Shown in pieces: positions 6,358-45,872 of a stretch of 64,000 nt of DNA. Each line of letters starts with the position of its first letter. Position 1 is the first letter of the stretch. The notes below the pieces were generated by a model. That model made no database searches. It was given only the letters and a program-made list of their open reading frames with translations, and was not told where the DNA came from. Both the position numbers and the translations under genes were made by a program. This DNA is from Promethearchaeota archaeon (GTDB lineage Archaea > Asgardarchaeota > Lokiarchaeia > Sigyniarchaeales > SOKP01): positions 1 to 64,000 of the forward strand of contig JAHLWP010000005.1 of NCBI GenBank assembly GCA_019057865.1, in the 5' to 3' direction.

Positions 6358-7392
6358 TTAGACAAACCGTTGATTAATGACTGTTTGAAATTGTATATTT
6401 GACCGTGGTCGATTTTGATAACCGCCTCTCTTTGAGACTAAGTAAAACTGTGCCATGGTTTTATCATGAACTAAGGTAATTCCACGCCATTTATTATTGT
6501 TAGAATTGAATTCTACTACGTTTCCGAGACCAACTCCTTCTCTTGTTGAAATTTCAAATTTTAAACTATTTAAAATCTTAATAAGTTTATCATGATATTC
6601 AGTAATTTCTTTTTTCTGTGATTTGTCTTTAAATCTTAAGGCTTCAATTGAAAAGGCTTTAAGGATATCATTACTCATATACTTCCATGCATCAGAGTTA
6701 GCATAAAATTCAATTCCGATAAATTCACCGTTTATAAACACAGCAATTCCACACTGATTTTCTACATTCTTAAAATTATTGACCATCTTTTCTGTTTGTT
6801 TTTCAGATTCCTGTGTCATTTCAAGGTAACTTTGAGTAGGAGCAACAGCAAGGTCGTAATTCATTTCAGCTCTATGAGACTGGATTTCATCCCATACTGC
6901 ACCCTGACCTACTGCTGAAATTGCCTCAAATGCAACATTAGGGTGTAGTCGAGTATTTGACGACTTAAACCCACGTCCCTTAGTGTATCTCCATCTTGAT
7001 TGTTCTACACATTTAGCGGGGATTTTATATTTCTGAGAAGGATTTCCAGGATTTTGCTTGACAATAGATTGTTTTCCTCCGACGGGTAATAAAATAGGTT
7101 CCCAGATTGTTCTATCCTGCTTTCCGCCATGGACAGTCATTCCAAATGGAATTAATATTTGTTTATCGCTTTTATTTATAACTTCTAATTCGCCAACTGC
7201 ATCAGTTTCAACAATTTCTATTAGTTCCAATTCTTCAGCTTCTTTTATTGTTATAAAATCAATAAATTTATCATCTTGAACGATAATAGGGATAACAGTC
7301 ATATTTTTATAAACTTGAGGAGATTCTAACTTAAGAAAACCTAATGGATTTTTAAACATAGATTCTACAATTTGAATACTATCATTTTTCAA
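6358..7392 (-). CDS. ARPP-1 (DUF6569) family protein
   Basis: P.VYKNMTVIPI, EIVE...VGELEVINKS...ILIP.G..VHGGKQDR, IP..CVEQSRW, QGAVW.EI and QCGIAVFING....IEF match ARPP-1/DUF6569. The TTG start overlaps the upstream TGA. Confidence 0.75.
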   Translation of the reverse strand: MKNDSIQIVESMFKNPLGFLKLESPQVYKNMTVIPIIVQDDKFIDFITIKEAEELELIEIVETDAVGELEVINKSDKQILIPFGMTVHGGKQDRTIWEPILLPVGGKQSIVKQNPGNPSQKYKIPAKCVEQSRWRYTKGRGFKSSNTRLHPNVAFEAISAVGQGAVWDEIQSHRAEMNYDLAVAPTQSYLEMTQESEKQTEKMVNNFKNVENQCGIAVFINGEFIGIEFYANSDAWKYMSNDILKAFSIEALRFKDKSQKKEITEYHDKLIKILNSLKFEISTREGVGLGNVVEFNSNNNKWRGITLVHDKTMAQFYLVSKRGGYQNRPRSNIQFQTVINQRFV

Positions 7393-7808
7393 ACTTGCTC
7401 ATCCTCCTTTACATTATTTTTATTTTTTTCTTTTTTTTTGGCAACCTCTTCTTCATAAAGCGGACTTATAAATTGATTAACAATATCTTCTCCATTTTTA
7501 GTAAGTTCTACCCCATAAGAGATTTGGATTTTTCCATTGTCAGTTTTTCCATTTATTCTTGTTCCTTTATCTATTTTTAGATCAGGCTCAGGTATTTCTT
7601 CTGTATGAGTCTTTATTAAACCACCTCTTTTAAGTGCATTTAGATGATAATTTAGACTTTGTTTTTGAATGCCGATATTATCAGCCATTTTTTTAGGTCT
7701 TTGAGGACTTTCCGAGAGTTCTCTTAAAATATCAGCTCTTACAGGGCTTCTAAACACAAGTCCGACTTTCTCGAAAATTGGTTTTTTCTTTTCTTTCTTT
7801 TTTGTCAT
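7389..7808 (-). CDS. ArsR-like winged helix-turn-helix transcriptional regulator
   Basis: SPVRADILREL...PQRPKKMADNIGIQKQSLNYHLNALKRGGLI, with a wing ending ELTKNG. It has a 4-nt overlap with the ARPP-1 gene. Confidence 0.85.
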   Translation of the reverse strand: MTKKKEKKKPIFEKVGLVFRSPVRADILRELSESPQRPKKMADNIGIQKQSLNYHLNALKRGGLIKTHTEEIPEPDLKIDKGTRINGKTDNGKIQISYGVELTKNGEDIVNQFISPLYEEEVAKKKEKNKNNVKEDEQV

Positions 7809-7828
7809 AATTTTTCACATCAATTTTG

Positions 7829-7868
7829 GTAAAAAACTTTTTTACTATAAAAATTTTTACTGTAAAAA
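7829..7868. promoter_or_regulatory. Array of palindromic operator half-sites upstream of the ArsR/ARPP-1 operon
   Basis: There is a perfect palindrome GTAAAAAA-C-TTTTTTAC (7829-7845), a second perfect one TTTTTAC-T-GTAAAAA (7854-7868) and an imperfect TTTTTAC-T-ATAAAAA between them. The array lies between the start codon and a minus-strand TATA-like TTTAAATA near 7885-7893. Confidence 0.55.
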
Positions 7869-7977
7869 TAAATAATGAATTGCATATTTAAATGTTTGTG
7901 ATTTTCTAAATTAAATTTCTTTAAAATCATTTGAATTTGAAAAGGCATAAAATAATAATTTAAGTAAAAATAAAGGC

Positions 7978-41682: not shown

Positions 41683-41791
41683 TTTTCATAAAACTCCTAA
41701 ATTCTTTAAGATATTAAGAAATTGGACAATTATTTACAAGATACATCAAACGTTATGATAGTATATCTTTAAAATTTAGAATTAATAAGGT

Positions 41792-44050
41792 TTAACCATT
41801 TAAAAAATAATCTAAATCTAGTTGTTTTCCATTATCATCCTTTTTATTTATTACTTCAAAATTGAAATATTCATAAAAATCTTCTTTAATTAACCCTTTT
41901 TGAATTAAATCTTCTTTTAATTCTTTAGTACTATGAGTGTTAATAGAAGATAAATCATAATTATAGAGCGCCTTTAGTGAATCCAAATCATGATTATAAT
42001 TGAAATCAATTATTTTATTATAAAAATCTTTATCTCTACCTTCTAATCCAATGAGAACTACTCCTAAATTATGACTAATAACTCTCACATTTTCAGGATA
42101 TTTAATCCTATCGTCTACAGGTAAATGTTTAATATCATCATACGGATACCATCTAGTTCCGACAATGACGAGGAGTGTGTCTTCTGATTGATATTTTTCA
42201 ATCTTATTAATAAGGTTTTCATTACCTATATCATTAGTAAAATCAAATTGAGTGCTTTTTACATGATCTAAATTTTTAGGATCTAATTCAAGTTTATCTC
42301 TTAAATATTCCCCGGTTTGAGGGTTTGTTAATCTTTGATGTATAAAATTATTGTCTTCTAGAATTAATCCATCAGGTCTTCTTTTATCGGAATATATATT
42401 TGGTTCTGTATAATATTTCTGCTTATGGATATTGTTAATCGCTCTTGTTAGAAGAGAATTTAAATTTAAATGAGAATAATTTCCAATTTCAAGATTTTCA
42501 TCATAAGGAAATCTTTCTCTATGGGCATCAAGACTATCCTTGAAAACCTCATTCTGAGAAACACTTGAGACTGAAGGTCGACTTACTCCATTTTTTTCGG
42601 CTATTTCTGAAATATTCAGTTTGGTATTTTTGATATCATTTATAATTTCTTTTTTTGTATCAGAAGTAATTGGATCGTAAGGCTTCCAAGTTTTTTCATA
42701 AATTTCTTTAGGGATTGTACTTTTAGCTAGTTTTCGAGTATATTCAGTAGAGACCTTGTACTTTTTTCCAATTTCATTTAAGGAGAGATGATCAGGTTTT
42801 TTAATTTCCTCTTTTAAAGATTGTATTATTTCTAAGGCAATTTCCTTAGGAATTTCAATTGTTAATGGAGACCATATTTTATCATGGAGTTCCTTGGGAA
42901 CTGCTTGTTGGGCAAGTCGTTTAATTGTATCTGAACCCACTTCTGGAAAATCTTTATGAATATCCCTTAAAGTTCTAGGATTTTCTTTCTGAGATTCGTT
43001 TTGAAGAGTTTTTAAGATCTCATTTTTTATTTTGCTAGGTATCTTTTGGATTGCTGGCCATAATTCTTCATATCTATCTGGATATGTATATCTTGCTAAT
43101 TCAAAAATGTATGTATTAGAAACTTCTGGAAAATCTCTTGAAATATTTCTGAGAGAGCGTGGAGATTCTTTTTGAACTTCTTCTCTGAGTGACTCTTTAA
43201 TGCGTTCTCTTGTTTCAGGAGAGACTGTACTCCTTGTGGATGGCCACATTTTTTCATATATTTCTTGGGATATTTCCTTCTTAGCGATTCTGTCTATTTT
43301 TGAGATTTCTGGAAATTCCTTTGCAATTCTATAAAGTGAATCATGTTTAGTTCCCGCATTATATTTTTCTACTTCTTCTTTTAATCTTTCCATTATTCTT
43401 TCTTTTAAATCATTTGGTAAACCTCTAGCCCATCGTTCTTTATGAGAATTTATATCATTTTTATATACTTCTTGAAGAGAAATACTTCCAACTAGTTTGC
43501 GATTAATATATAACCCTACCTCATTCAGCTGATTGGCAATTTCATTTTGAGAAAGACCTGAATTTCGGATTTTATCGTTTAAGAAATTATTGATTTCTTG
43601 TTTATTTTGGATATCTTTTATTCTATTGATAATCTCTGGATCTTTTTCTGTATTTTCGACCCATTCTATGAAATCTTTTTTTAAATTCCTACCATAATTA
43701 GCATATTTCCCTGTTTCATCATAATATTGTCTAAAAGTGTTTTGAATCCTTTCTTTTAATAAGTCATTATAATCTTTAGATCCTTCATTAAAATTATCTA
43801 GAACTAAATTTTTGTGTTCTTCAAATGGTTCTTCAACCTCTTCTTGAGGATTAAAATTAATATATTCTTCAAATGGATCTTCGACCTCTTCTTGAGGATC
43901 AAAATTATTATATTCTTCAAACGGATCTTCAAATTGTTTATGAATTTCCTTATCCTTATCTAAAGTTTTTTCTTCAATCATATCTTCGTCTTTTTCTTCA
44001 TCTATCTCTTCAAAAGTGTCATCATTATAATCGCTACCATATTCACTCAA
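41792..44050 (-). CDS. Modular protein: acidic repeat N-terminus, about six tandem ~62-aa HTH-like repeats and a C-terminal putative PD-(D/E)xK nuclease domain
   Basis: The repeats align as I....K..I...L.EE..K...(R/L)SL..I.K.FP.VS...I..LA....P.E.YE..W. The C-terminus reads IG..SH ... YTE ... RRPDGLI ... QFDFT ... NKIEKY ... LLVIVG. Confidence 0.55.
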   Translation of the reverse strand: MSEYGSDYNDDTFEEIDEEKDEDMIEEKTLDKDKEIHKQFEDPFEEYNNFDPQEEVEDPFEEYINFNPQEEVEEPFEEHKNLVLDNFNEGSKDYNDLLKERIQNTFRQYYDETGKYANYGRNLKKDFIEWVENTEKDPEIINRIKDIQNKQEINNFLNDKIRNSGLSQNEIANQLNEVGLYINRKLVGSISLQEVYKNDINSHKERWARGLPNDLKERIMERLKEEVEKYNAGTKHDSLYRIAKEFPEISKIDRIAKKEISQEIYEKMWPSTRSTVSPETRERIKESLREEVQKESPRSLRNISRDFPEVSNTYIFELARYTYPDRYEELWPAIQKIPSKIKNEILKTLQNESQKENPRTLRDIHKDFPEVGSDTIKRLAQQAVPKELHDKIWSPLTIEIPKEIALEIIQSLKEEIKKPDHLSLNEIGKKYKVSTEYTRKLAKSTIPKEIYEKTWKPYDPITSDTKKEIINDIKNTKLNISEIAEKNGVSRPSVSSVSQNEVFKDSLDAHRERFPYDENLEIGNYSHLNLNSLLTRAINNIHKQKYYTEPNIYSDKRRPDGLILEDNNFIHQRLTNPQTGEYLRDKLELDPKNLDHVKSTQFDFTNDIGNENLINKIEKYQSEDTLLVIVGTRWYPYDDIKHLPVDDRIKYPENVRVISHNLGVVLIGLEGRDKDFYNKIIDFNYNHDLDSLKALYNYDLSSINTHSTKELKEDLIQKGLIKEDFYEYFNFEVINKKDDNGKQLDLDYFLNG
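43817..43930. repeat. 48-bp intragenic tandem repeat (about 2.4 copies; encodes EDPFEEY.NF.PQEEV)
   Basis: Units start at 43817, 43865 and 43913, each beginning TTCTTCAAA(T/C)GG. Confidence 0.85.
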
Positions 44051-44561
44051 TTAAAATCACAAGCATTTATTTAATTTTTAATAGATATTAATTTGAAAAT
44101 AATTAAAGAAAAATCTTAGTTCAATCGAAGAATCCTTGTTTCAATATTCTCATTCAAAGAATTCGTAATTTTTTTTTTTTAAAAATCATAGTTATTCATC
44201 TAAATTTTTAGAGAAAATACTAGATTAATATCTTATATTTTATTTAGGTTAGAAAAAGTTATAAAATTCCTCAGACTTTTAATTTAGTAATATTTACTAA
44301 ATCTATAGAAATATGGCTGATGAAATCGCATTTTTCCATTAGTTTAATATAAGTAAAAGAGGATTACTTATAAAAAATAACATTATTAATATTAATTTTT
44401 TGTGTCTATACTAAGGGAAACTGAGACGATAACTAAAATTCAATAAAAATACAAATTTTATTAGTGTACATTAATTTAATTGATCATTGCATTTTCTGGA
44501 TTTGGTATTTTTCAAAACCACAAATCTATATTTTGTAATATTGAACTCTTAAGTAGATGAC

Positions 44562-45872
44562 TTGCATATGTTCACAAAATTTAAACGTACATATAACGAA
44601 TATCCCAATGCATTTAAAGTGCTGACTCTCGCTACTTTCATTGACAGATTAGGAGGCTTTTTATTATTTCCTTTTTTTGCGTTGTATATAACCGATCATT
44701 TTGGAGTGGGGATGACCGAAGTAGGAATTCTATTTGCGATCTTCTCGGGAGGAAGTATACTCGGTAGTGCTATTGGAGGAGCATTATCAGATAAATATGG
44801 TCGTCGGGTGATGGTCCTATTTGGTTTGGTTTTAAGCGGGATTGGAAGTATTTTAATGGGATTGGTCAATGATTTGACTATTTTTTTCATACTCGCTGCA
44901 TTTTTAGGTGTTTTTGGCTCTTTTGGTGGTCCTGCACGACAAGCAATGGTAGTAGATTTACTTCCAACAGAGAAACAAGCAGAAGGATTTGGAATTCTAC
45001 GAGTGGCAGTTAATCTTTCAGCAACGATCGGTCCTATTTTTGGTGGATTTTTAGCGACCCAATCTTTTATGATGTTATTTATTGGGGATGCTGTGAGCAG
45101 CTTAATTACCGCATTTATTGTTTATGGTGTCATTCCTGAGACGAAACCTCAAAAACTTGATGGCATACCAGAAGAAACAGTAGCAAAAACCTTTAAAGGA
45201 TATAAAGAAGTGTTAAACGATTGGGTATTTGTGGTATTTCTCGCTGTGTCTGCCATAACAGTGTTAGTATATATGCAAATGGTTAGCACACTTTCGGTAT
45301 TCTTACGGGACGTTCACGGGTTCCCACCAGAGGGTTTTGGTTTGTTGGTAAGTATGAACGCGGCTATGGTGGTGCTATTTCAATTCTGGATAACTAGGAA
45401 GATTTCAAAGTATGCTCCCATGAAGATGATAGCCGTTGGAACACTGTTTTATATGATTGGCTTTGGGATGTTTGGTTTTGTCTCTACGATATACATGTTT
45501 TTCATCGCTATGGCAATTCTCACGGTGGGAGAGATGATTGCAATGCCTATTGGGCAAACTGCAGCTGCATCTTTTGCTCCTGAAGATAAGCGAGGACGGT
45601 ATATGGCGGTGTATGGTTTCCATTGGGCTATTCCAACTCTTTTTGGGGTTTATGCCGCCGGATTAGTTATGGATAATATTAGCCCATACTTGGTGTGGTA
45701 TTTAGCGGGGATTCTGTCTCTGATTTCAGCGATAGGATTTTGGCTACTCCATGGTCCTACCAAAAAGCGCTTTTCAAAAGTAATGGAAGCTCCAAAAATA
45801 ATAGAAGCTCCGAAAGTAATGGAAGCTCCAAAAGTAATAGAACCCATAAAAGAAGATTTGCATGAACTATGA
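44562..45872 (+). CDS. MFS transporter (MDR/YqjV-MdtH-like)
   Basis: Motif A reads GGALSDKYGRR, with N....IGP..GG, ILT.GEM...P and AP...RGRYM. The start is probably the ATG at 44568. Confidence 0.92.
   Translation: MHMFTKFKRTYNEYPNAFKVLTLATFIDRLGGFLLFPFFALYITDHFGVGMTEVGILFAIFSGGSILGSAIGGALSDKYGRRVMVLFGLVLSGIGSILMGLVNDLTIFFILAAFLGVFGSFGGPARQAMVVDLLPTEKQAEGFGILRVAVNLSATIGPIFGGFLATQSFMMLFIGDAVSSLITAFIVYGVIPETKPQKLDGIPEETVAKTFKGYKEVLNDWVFVVFLAVSAITVLVYMQMVSTLSVFLRDVHGFPPEGFGLLVSMNAAMVVLFQFWITRKISKYAPMKMIAVGTLFYMIGFGMFGFVSTIYMFFIAMAILTVGEMIAMPIGQTAAASFAPEDKRGRYMAVYGFHWAIPTLFGVYAAGLVMDNISPYLVWYLAGILSLISAIGFWLLHGPTKKRFSKVMEAPKIIEAPKVMEAPKVIEPIKEDLHEL
45777..45848 (+). repeat. 18-bp tandem repeat, four copies, in the MFS C-terminal tail (KVMEAP/KIIEAP/KVMEAP/KVIEPI)
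   Basis: AAAGTAATGGAAGCTCCA, AAAATAATAGAAGCTCCG, AAAGTAATGGAAGCTCCA, AAAGTAATAGAACCCATA. Confidence 0.9.

Follow-up and report, generated by a model that had tools for sequence, protein, structure and literature searches.

The window analyzed here is a stretch of 64,000 nucleotides from a Promethearchaeota archaeon (contig JAHLWP010000005.1, positions 1 to 64,000), and our subject is a single gene within it, an open reading frame (ORF) at 41792-44050 on the reverse strand that lies between a GH57 gene and a gene for a 577-aa protein. The ORF is the sole long frame of its stretch, begins with a TTG codon whose position coincides with the MSEYG start of its orthologs, with which it shares the first residue, and encodes a product of 752 aa. 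A preliminary description of this DNA had proposed that the product joins helix-turn-helix (HTH) repeats to a nuclease-type C-terminal domain; this observation is confirmed, and the strings quoted for it (GNYSH, YYTEP, RRPDGLI, FDFT, NKIEKY, and LNISEIAEKNGVSRPSVSSV) are all present in the translation. From the N- to the C-terminus, the protein consists of a variable acidic tail, a conserved N-terminal motif, six HTH modules of ~62 aa arranged A-B-B-B-B-A, a nuclease-fold domain, and a PCNA-interacting protein (PIP) box that had been overlooked. We hold tentatively that the gene encodes a predicted DNA endonuclease made of known parts in a new combination.

The tail (residues 1-89; 43784-44050) is acidic, of low complexity, and poorly conserved (mean conservation 0.20), contains 16-aa (48-nt) tandem repeats at 43806-43949, and in other orthologs is basic, lysine-rich, or extended. 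The N-terminal motif (residues 90-149; 43604-43783; mean conservation 0.65) is marked by Y109, K115, N118, G120, F127, and W130, is modeled as a helix, a short hairpin, and a helix, and occurs in paralogs as well. The six modules that follow have mean conservation values of 0.57-0.72. Module A1 (residues 150-212; 43415-43603) is helical in the model, B1 (residues 213-272; 43235-43414) is recognized by profile alignment to the other B modules, and B2 (residues 273-335; 43046-43234) and B4 (residues 398-459; 42674-42859) are each recovered by BLASTP, the model, hhalign, and structural neighbors. B3 (residues 336-397; 42860-43045), recovered by BLASTP, the model, and hhalign, is the most conserved repeat, and A2 (residues 460-520; 42491-42673) has a canonical helix, G-V-S turn, and helix and matches Pfam Sigma70_r4 over residues 464-496 (E = 1.2e-5; score 25.2 bits, cut-off 24.1).

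The kinship of the repeats lies well beyond chance. BLASTP between repeat pieces gives E values of 5e-13 to 2.5e-6 for the four inner repeats and 4e-8 for the outer two, and hhalign profile-profile comparison, with profiles from 33 orthologs, gives probabilities of 98.9-99.4% for B-B pairs, 97.8% for the A1-A2 pair, and up to 88.5% for A-B pairs over the HTH part. The repeats had been described as four clear and two degenerate; the count of six stands, and what separates them is a division into two types rather than decay. The model of residues 90-519 (predicted local distance difference test, pLDDT, 86.5; predicted template modeling score, pTM, 0.35) consists of separate modules of 3-4 helices, each well formed, with no fixed mutual arrangement. 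When single repeats are compared with the PDB using VIA, the neighbors are almost only HTH DNA-binding domains, over 42-60 residues at a root-mean-square deviation (rmsd) of 1.8-3 Å and Z of 5-6, values that are low because the domains are small. They include the Tc3 transposase bipartite domain (the top neighbor, Z 6.0), GcrA (Z 5.9, rmsd 2.2 Å over 48 residues), Myb R2R3, and the HTH of serine recombinases. The repeats thus have the tri-helical HTH geometry proposed for them, and nothing like a non-HTH solenoid is seen. A Foldseek search with the whole 430-residue array returned no match with E below 1e-3, which is uninformative for modules without a fixed arrangement.

A repeat-encoded recognition code, which had also been suggested, does not fit these data. 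Repeat-code readers of the TALE kind have near-identical repeats that differ at a few hypervariable residues and vary in number, whereas the repeats here are 30-37% identical, number six in every full-length ortholog, and are conserved position by position, with each recognition helix retained between orthologs.

The nuclease-fold core occupies residues 521-660 (42071-42490), and its assignment draws on the structural model, on fold neighbors, and on the invariance and joint decay of its key residues. The C-terminal 253 residues, modeled with AlphaFold2 (pLDDT 90.2, pTM 0.85), follow the order alpha-beta-beta-beta-alpha-beta-beta, with a helix at 16-43, strands at 47-48, 62-65, and 100-106, a helix at 111-121, and a strand at 126-132 in domain numbering, and the alpha-beta-beta-beta-alpha-beta core of the PD-(D/E)xK superfamily is found here with moderate support. 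PD-(D/E)xK nucleases make up nearly the whole of the top 50 neighbors in both VIA runs, at Z of 5-6.8, a range under the noise level of 7-8 stated for the tool; among them are HerA-DUF4297 (Z 6.8), Can1/Can2, McrC, Bax1, the R2 restriction-like endonuclease (RLE), enzymes of the Cfr10I, EcoRII, and PspGI types, NucC, and EndoMS. We assign the restriction-fold class because the neighbor list is uniform and because of the secondary-structure order and the positions of the motifs. Pfam gave nothing for the domain in 32 family members at E up to 1; NCBIfam, the PDB (by sequence and by profile), and PADLOC gave no match covering it; PHROGs matched HTH parts and nothing in the nuclease domain; and no sequence-profile match to a curated PD-(D/E)xK family was obtained, while an Atlas search returned a weak lead to PDDEXK_3 (score 0.86). 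With moderate confidence, the modeled domain is predicted to be a very divergent member of the PD-(D/E)xK, or restriction-endonuclease-fold, superfamily, as had been proposed.

Mean conservation of the C-terminal domain is 0.72, and ten residues are invariant in 36 orthologs: E549, P550, D560, G561, Q601, D603, K616, K619, Y620, and Q621. The codons of the four residues discussed below lie on the reverse strand within the core (E549, 42404-42406; D560, 42371-42373; D603, 42242-42244; K616, 42203-42205). E549, D560, D603, K616, and K619 are also found in most paralogs. Among 92 paralogs, D603 and K616 are both present in 62 and both missing in 29, with a single protein retaining just one of them (62/1/0/29); Fisher values for this association overstate independence, since the losses fall essentially into one clade of 28 in the domain tree (support 97) and mainly reflect one event. 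Within that clade, after the joint loss of D603 and K616, the residues E549, D560, and K619 erode in sub-lineages, while T605, Q621, G631, and W634 are kept. Such piecemeal erosion is the signature of a dead active site, and it supports the prediction that E549, D560, D603, and K616 behave as one active site. D560 precedes strand 2, D603 lies on strand 3, and the canonical lysine position is taken by T605; K616 lies on the helix that follows strand 3 and co-varies with D603, in keeping with the migrated lysine suggested in the preliminary description. A migrated active-site residue is known in Cfr10I-type enzymes, to which the D603/K616 variant is comparable. Members of the clade of 28 (among P0047-P0127) often have TPR-like N-terminal regions and lack the PIP tail, with the fold kept; the clade may be a domesticated or inactivated branch.

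These same residues bear on whether the protein cuts DNA at all. It might instead be a multi-HTH regulator or chromatin factor in which the restriction-fold domain serves for binding or oligomerization, a reading in line with modules whose folds resemble sigma-70 region 4, Myb, or transposase domains, with threonine rather than lysine at position 605, and with the clade of 28, where retention of the fold after loss of D603 and K616 indicates a scaffold that is useful without catalysis. However, all four or five candidate catalytic residues are invariant in the 36 orthologs while the surrounding surface varies, and their decay is confined to proteins that have already lost D603 and K616, which marks a working site here; a non-catalytic protein is very improbable.

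The core is followed by a conserved helical subdomain and a variable linker (residues 661-740; 41831-42070). Within residues of about 700-740 (41831-41950), T-x-E-L-K-E-D-L-I-Q-K-G-L-I looks, on visual inspection, like the opening helix and turn of a SAP/HeH DNA-binding motif; it has no Pfam match and is retained even in the catalytically degenerate clade. The PIP box (Q743-L-D-L-D-Y-F-L750; 41801-41824) stands two residues short of the C-terminus, after a low-confidence linker, and is modeled at pLDDT below 50 with a short helix. It fits the pattern Q-x-x-[LIM]-x-x-[FY]-[FYL] expected of a conserved C-terminal tail on a flexible linker: the orthologs all finish in K-Q-L-D-L-D-[YH]-F-L-N-x, the last 12 residues being near-invariant (mean conservation 0.79) though the preceding linker varies, and many paralog subfamilies finish in Q-x-x-[IL]-x-x-[FY]-[LIF] variants. 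In this genome, such tails occur in 26 of 4727 ORFs, including FEN1 (QVSLDNFF) and the PolD subunit DP2 (QHKLSDFF), and both the PIP consensus and the C-terminal PIP boxes of DP2, FEN1, NucS, and XPF have been described (PMC7776575). PIP-like tails are also seen in an N6/N4 DNA methylase (QLKIDKFL; C34:60618-61547), a deoxynucleoside kinase (QMNLNEFL; C27:46834-47544), a DUF72 protein (QIGLDEFM; C16:3069-3938), and a PDDEXK_1 nuclease (QVNLMKFI; C22:76307-77272), motifs that suggest an extended set of PCNA clients in this organism. The methylase was considered as a partner of the nuclease and rejected, as it showed no clear ortholog pattern in five genomes. An RNase HII match (G000 C75:81539-82168; L045) holds an in-frame TAG.

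The tail is the first of several features that would suit an accessory repair or replication nuclease, PCNA-tethered, specific for a structure or lesion in the manner of NucS/EndoMS or XPF, and mainly vertically inherited, dispensable, and often lost. The PIP box is of the kind carried by established replication proteins encoded in this genome, archaeal PCNA-dependent PD-(D/E)xK nucleases are known in NucS/EndoMS and XPF (PMC7776575), the recognition helices are conserved among orthologs, and one paralog is fused to a DEDDh exonuclease. Clamp binding is also common in the nucleases of mobile elements, namely Pogo, LINE-1 ORF2p, and insertion sequence (IS) transposases, the latter including cases with archaeal PCNA (PMC5371812), and a clamp tail is thus no obstacle to a mobile nuclease. 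The distribution of the family weighs against a repair enzyme, in that it is restricted to one archaeal family and most same-genus genomes lack the ortholog.

A search of 1.8 billion representatives recovered 127 clusters with the nuclease domain, which is mostly C-terminal, in proteins of 200-3037 aa. Screening of the archaeal family to which the window belongs recovered the domain from 9 of 25 genomes at first and from 56 of 134 subsequently, against none of 126 genomes of the phylum's other families; the protein family is thus seen only in one family of Loki-type Asgard archaea, with up to 6 paralogs per genome, and has no Pfam model. Of 53 same-genus genomes, only about 5-8 carry an ortholog with an identity of at least 70%, the closest homologs are P0002 (93%) and P0003 (85%), and a metagenome scan yielded three short contigs only. 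This genome carries three paralogs at no more than 35% identity, on contigs C9, C77, and C49. The C49 paralog (L006:343-4887; 1514 aa) has a long acidic N-terminal region, different helical repeats of ~100 aa, and the same restriction-fold domain, in which V replaces E549, followed by a C-terminal DEDDh 3'-5' exonuclease (PADLOC DEDDh, E = 4e-16). On the same contig, a class I aminoacyl-tRNA synthetase gene is seemingly split into ORFs of 181 and 488 aa (L006:5171-5716 and 6475-7941) with about 760 bp between them, which could reflect a frameshift, an insertion, or an assembly error. In three genomes, long paralogs (1284-1562 aa, with an 865-aa ORF in L034; loci L007 on C77, L027, and L034) adjoin genes for small GTPases of the Ras/Arf family, an adjacency that is probably mere conserved synteny. 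Aloposons and giant Asgard proteins (PMC8813620) were considered and are unrelated to this family.

Patchy occurrence, with up to 6 paralogs per genome bearing different N-terminal arrays and one catalytically degenerate clade, is in keeping with a defense effector, namely a stand-alone restriction-like nuclease on PCNA whose HTH array would recognize foreign (viral or plasmid) replicating DNA and which would turn over at a variable hot spot. The best structural neighbors, which are mostly defense nucleases (HerA-DUF4297, Can1/2, LmuA, NucC, McrC, Avs3 nuclease, and MspJI), point the same way. However, no PADLOC model falls on the nuclease-fold domain, the matches being weak ones to HTH parts and DEDDh on the exonuclease part of one paralog, and no methylase, immunity, or sensor partner adjoins any copy examined, the neighbors being housekeeping genes.

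At the locus itself, the ortholog is in every case flanked by the GH57 gene and the 577-aa gene, and it occupies the same place in four other metagenome-assembled genomes (MAGs; L021-L024), making at least five lineages in all. The gene is absent from this spacer in all four same-genus genomes tested. In the closest relative, G008, the absence is a clean 2.64-kb indel (41683-44324) that spans the gene, the spacer between its stop codon and the GH57 start (41683-41791), and an upstream spacer (44051-44324); the latter travels with the gene and is 88% identical to L059, compared with 72% for the adjacent 577-aa gene. Broken copies are found in three lineages: in L024 the gene is truncated, its 5' two-thirds replaced by an alpha/beta-hydrolase gene and its PIP tail gone; in G049 a 24-aa tail remains beside GH57; and in L058 an internal deletion removes the array and the nuclease core. 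The gene thus shows presence and absence at one homologous site together with degenerate copies, as homing genes do. The hydrolase gene (L024:3074-3871) matches Abhydrolase_1 (E = 2.5e-28), and the cargo of the spacer differs by lineage.

In this genome the spacer also houses an MFS transporter gene (44562-45872, forward strand) with a GC content of 0.38, compared with about 0.29 around it. Apart from this genome, only G008 has the transporter gene; the corresponding spacer lacks it in L021, L023, L024, L059, G150, and G132. Positioned exactly where the nuclease cassette ends upstream, it represents a lineage-specific insertion and the clearer local insertion. The G008 deletion ends at 44324 and the homology to L059 at 44314; this near coincidence was considered as an independent cassette boundary and set aside, since the MFS gene is inserted just there. 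The preliminary description had found the position of the nuclease gene consistent with insertion here, a view that we do not retain, because at least five lineages have the gene at this one site, deletions and relics are among the cases of absence, the composition of the gene is native, and the inserted gene is the transporter.

Both alternatives can be read into this locus. A defense gene would be suited by the relics and by a GH57-577-aa spacer that holds an MFS or hydrolase gene in other lineages, as a hot spot would, whereas a locus fixed across lineages is less typical of such genes, and a lone nuclease would need some means of sparing host DNA. A repair gene would be suited by the native composition and by a locus identical in five lineages, with a flank tree that needs 2-3 losses, yet the several independent relics speak against it.

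Divergence at synonymous sites bears on how the gene was inherited. Over residues 521-752, identity at 4-fold degenerate sites between the window and L021 or L024 is 0.80 and 0.85, whereas it is 0.34-0.53 (saturation) in the GH57, U32 peptidase, PCMT, and 577-aa genes; Fisher p values for the nuclease region against GH57 are 2e-7 (L021) and 2e-8 (L024). Synonymous divergence (dS) in the nuclease region is 0.10-0.27, compared with 1.1-3 in the flanks. In the N-terminal 149 codons the signal is found for L021 only, with codon identity at conserved residues of 0.92 versus 0.50-0.68 for L022 and L023. Because this N-terminal signal is specific to the window-L021 pair and lies in a disordered tail, constraint cannot explain it, which argues for real exchange. 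The excess in nucleotide identity (88-92% versus 70-80%) extends about 50 bp past the stop codon on one side and 170-260 bp ahead of the start codon on the other, ending short of the flanking genes, and the window and L024 genes are closer to each other than those of L021 and L024, while the flanks show the opposite. The ratio of nonsynonymous to synonymous divergence (dN/dS) is 0.2-0.47 for the gene and 0.07-0.09 for GH57. The gene is thus a mosaic, its low-dS ends shared recently and its high-dS middle old and diverged. Its history is thus discordant with that of its flanks, as expected of horizontal spread, with some synonymous constraint possible.

These data led us to drop our first reading, that of a vertically inherited and merely dispensable gene. 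A repair nuclease would have to account for the low synonymous divergence by occasional homologous recombination or local constraint, and it meets a 5- to 10-fold synonymous deficit relative to four flanking genes that is confined to the gene, together with a dN/dS 3-5 times that of the neighbors; we consider it unlikely. A defense effector gains from the cross-lineage exchange and from HTH arrays that are deeply diverged between alleles, like specificity modules, and with the points against it given above it too is rather improbable. The preliminary description had left the choice between a selfish and a defense gene: presence and absence among close relatives and cross-lineage exchange fit its broad proposal, in the homing-like as well as in the defensive form.

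The reading we prefer, which is quite possible if short of probable, is that of a free-standing, homing-type, PCNA-tethered selfish endonuclease cassette. Here, the six independent HTH modules (A-B-B-B-B-A) would bind an extended stretch of double-stranded DNA, and the PD-(D/E)xK domain would cleave the bound DNA using the acidic residues E549, D560, and D603 and the lysine K616 from the helix after strand 3. The C-terminal PIP box would tether the enzyme to the PCNA sliding clamp and thereby to DNA under replication or repair. The gene and its upstream spacer of about 170-260 bp would form a cassette at one intergenic chromosomal site, between GH57 and the 577-aa gene, that is handed from one related lineage to another while its flanks stay behind, and that repeatedly decays and disappears, in a cycle of invasion, degeneration, and loss; paralogs elsewhere in the genomes would be sister elements at other sites. 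Exchange without flanks, a single site, and frequent decay together amount to the behavior of a homing endonuclease gene, and free-standing genes of this kind follow just such a cycle. What was found at each point where the broader proposal of the preliminary description, a selfish or defense gene, might have failed is compatible with that proposal: a restriction-type fold, conserved acidic residues, HTH modules rather than a solenoid, and a gene that is not syntenic and single-copy across its relatives.

Several observations weigh against a homing-type cassette. The fold match lies under the noise level given above, Foldseek with the nuclease-domain model returned no match with E below 1e-3, and T605 occupies the canonical strand-3 lysine position. 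The HTH array is near saturation (dS 0.7-1.6) and is the most diverged part of the gene, which makes it a poor fit to one conserved homing site, while the dS of the nuclease region, small in every pair, could partly reflect synonymous constraint. The absence in G008 is a deletion that also took flank-type spacer, with no pristine empty site, and a neighbor tree of four flanking genes is compatible with ancestral presence and two or three losses. All genomes compared are MAGs, the genes beside the paralogs are ordinary genes, a viral-contig scan found no relative, there are no near-identical copies, and no terminal repeats flank the gene. Transposon structure was rejected accordingly, the sole flanking inverted repeat being 34 nt at 71% in AT-rich DNA.

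A wider version of this reading, which is doubtful, would see in the family a new class of PCNA-dependent homing endonucleases native to Asgard archaeal chromosomes, in which the HTH array specifies a very long site and the clamp couples cutting and copying to replication. To the same doubtful degree, such elements might sit at different sites and spread between species like a natural gene drive, with swappable HTH arrays as specificity cassettes. If the homing-type reading holds, Loki-type Asgard archaea would possess a nuclease family of their own, clamp-tethered and HTH-guided, whose members transfer among species and degenerate at fixed chromosomal sites. Such a family would directly show that genes are exchanged, and that selfish or conflict dynamics operate, in the nearest lineage to eukaryotes; it would also be a prokaryotic counterpart of Pogo and other PIP-bearing transposases of eukaryotes, and a possible new scaffold for long-site DNA targeting. 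Even on modest readings, the gene represents an uncurated restriction-fold domain family, with no Pfam model, a clear predicted active site, and a candidate link to PCNA.

The protein shares features with several known systems and coincides with none of them. EndoMS is among its structural neighbors (5gke, Z 4.4; 2vld, Z 4.5-4.6), and no Pfam, NCBIfam, or PDB sequence match to the NucS N-terminal domain or family signature was found in it; in contrast to NucS/EndoMS and XPF/Hef, which are conserved repair genes, this is a patchy, exchanged, and decaying gene with a six-HTH array. The Pogo/Tigger, LINE-1 ORF2p, and IS transposase proteins resemble it in their N-terminal tandem HTH, catalytic nuclease, and PIP or clamp motif at or near the C-terminus (PMC5371812), while they differ in their DDE or APE catalysis, many sites, and terminal repeats, as opposed to a fixed locus, a restriction fold, and no terminal repeats here. 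The R2 retrotransposon likewise uses a restriction-fold nuclease guided by a Myb-type HTH to one chromosomal site, and the R2 RLE is a recurrent, weak structural neighbor (Z 5.1-5.7); R2 has a Myb/zinc-finger reader, a reverse transcriptase, and another domain order, whereas the window protein has no reverse transcriptase. Closest in behavior are the free-standing homing endonuclease genes, such as the Seg and Mob genes of T-even phages, whose cycle of gain and loss has been described for the yeast omega element. Like the gene studied here, they pair a nuclease with an HTH-type reader of a long site, lie between conserved genes, show presence, absence, and relics, and are more similar across lineages than their flanks. 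They rely, however, on GIY-YIG, HNH, or LAGLIDADG catalysis, a single HTH, and a phage, intron, or intein host, whereas the present gene combines a PD-(D/E)xK-like domain with six HTH modules and a PIP box and resides on a cellular chromosome.

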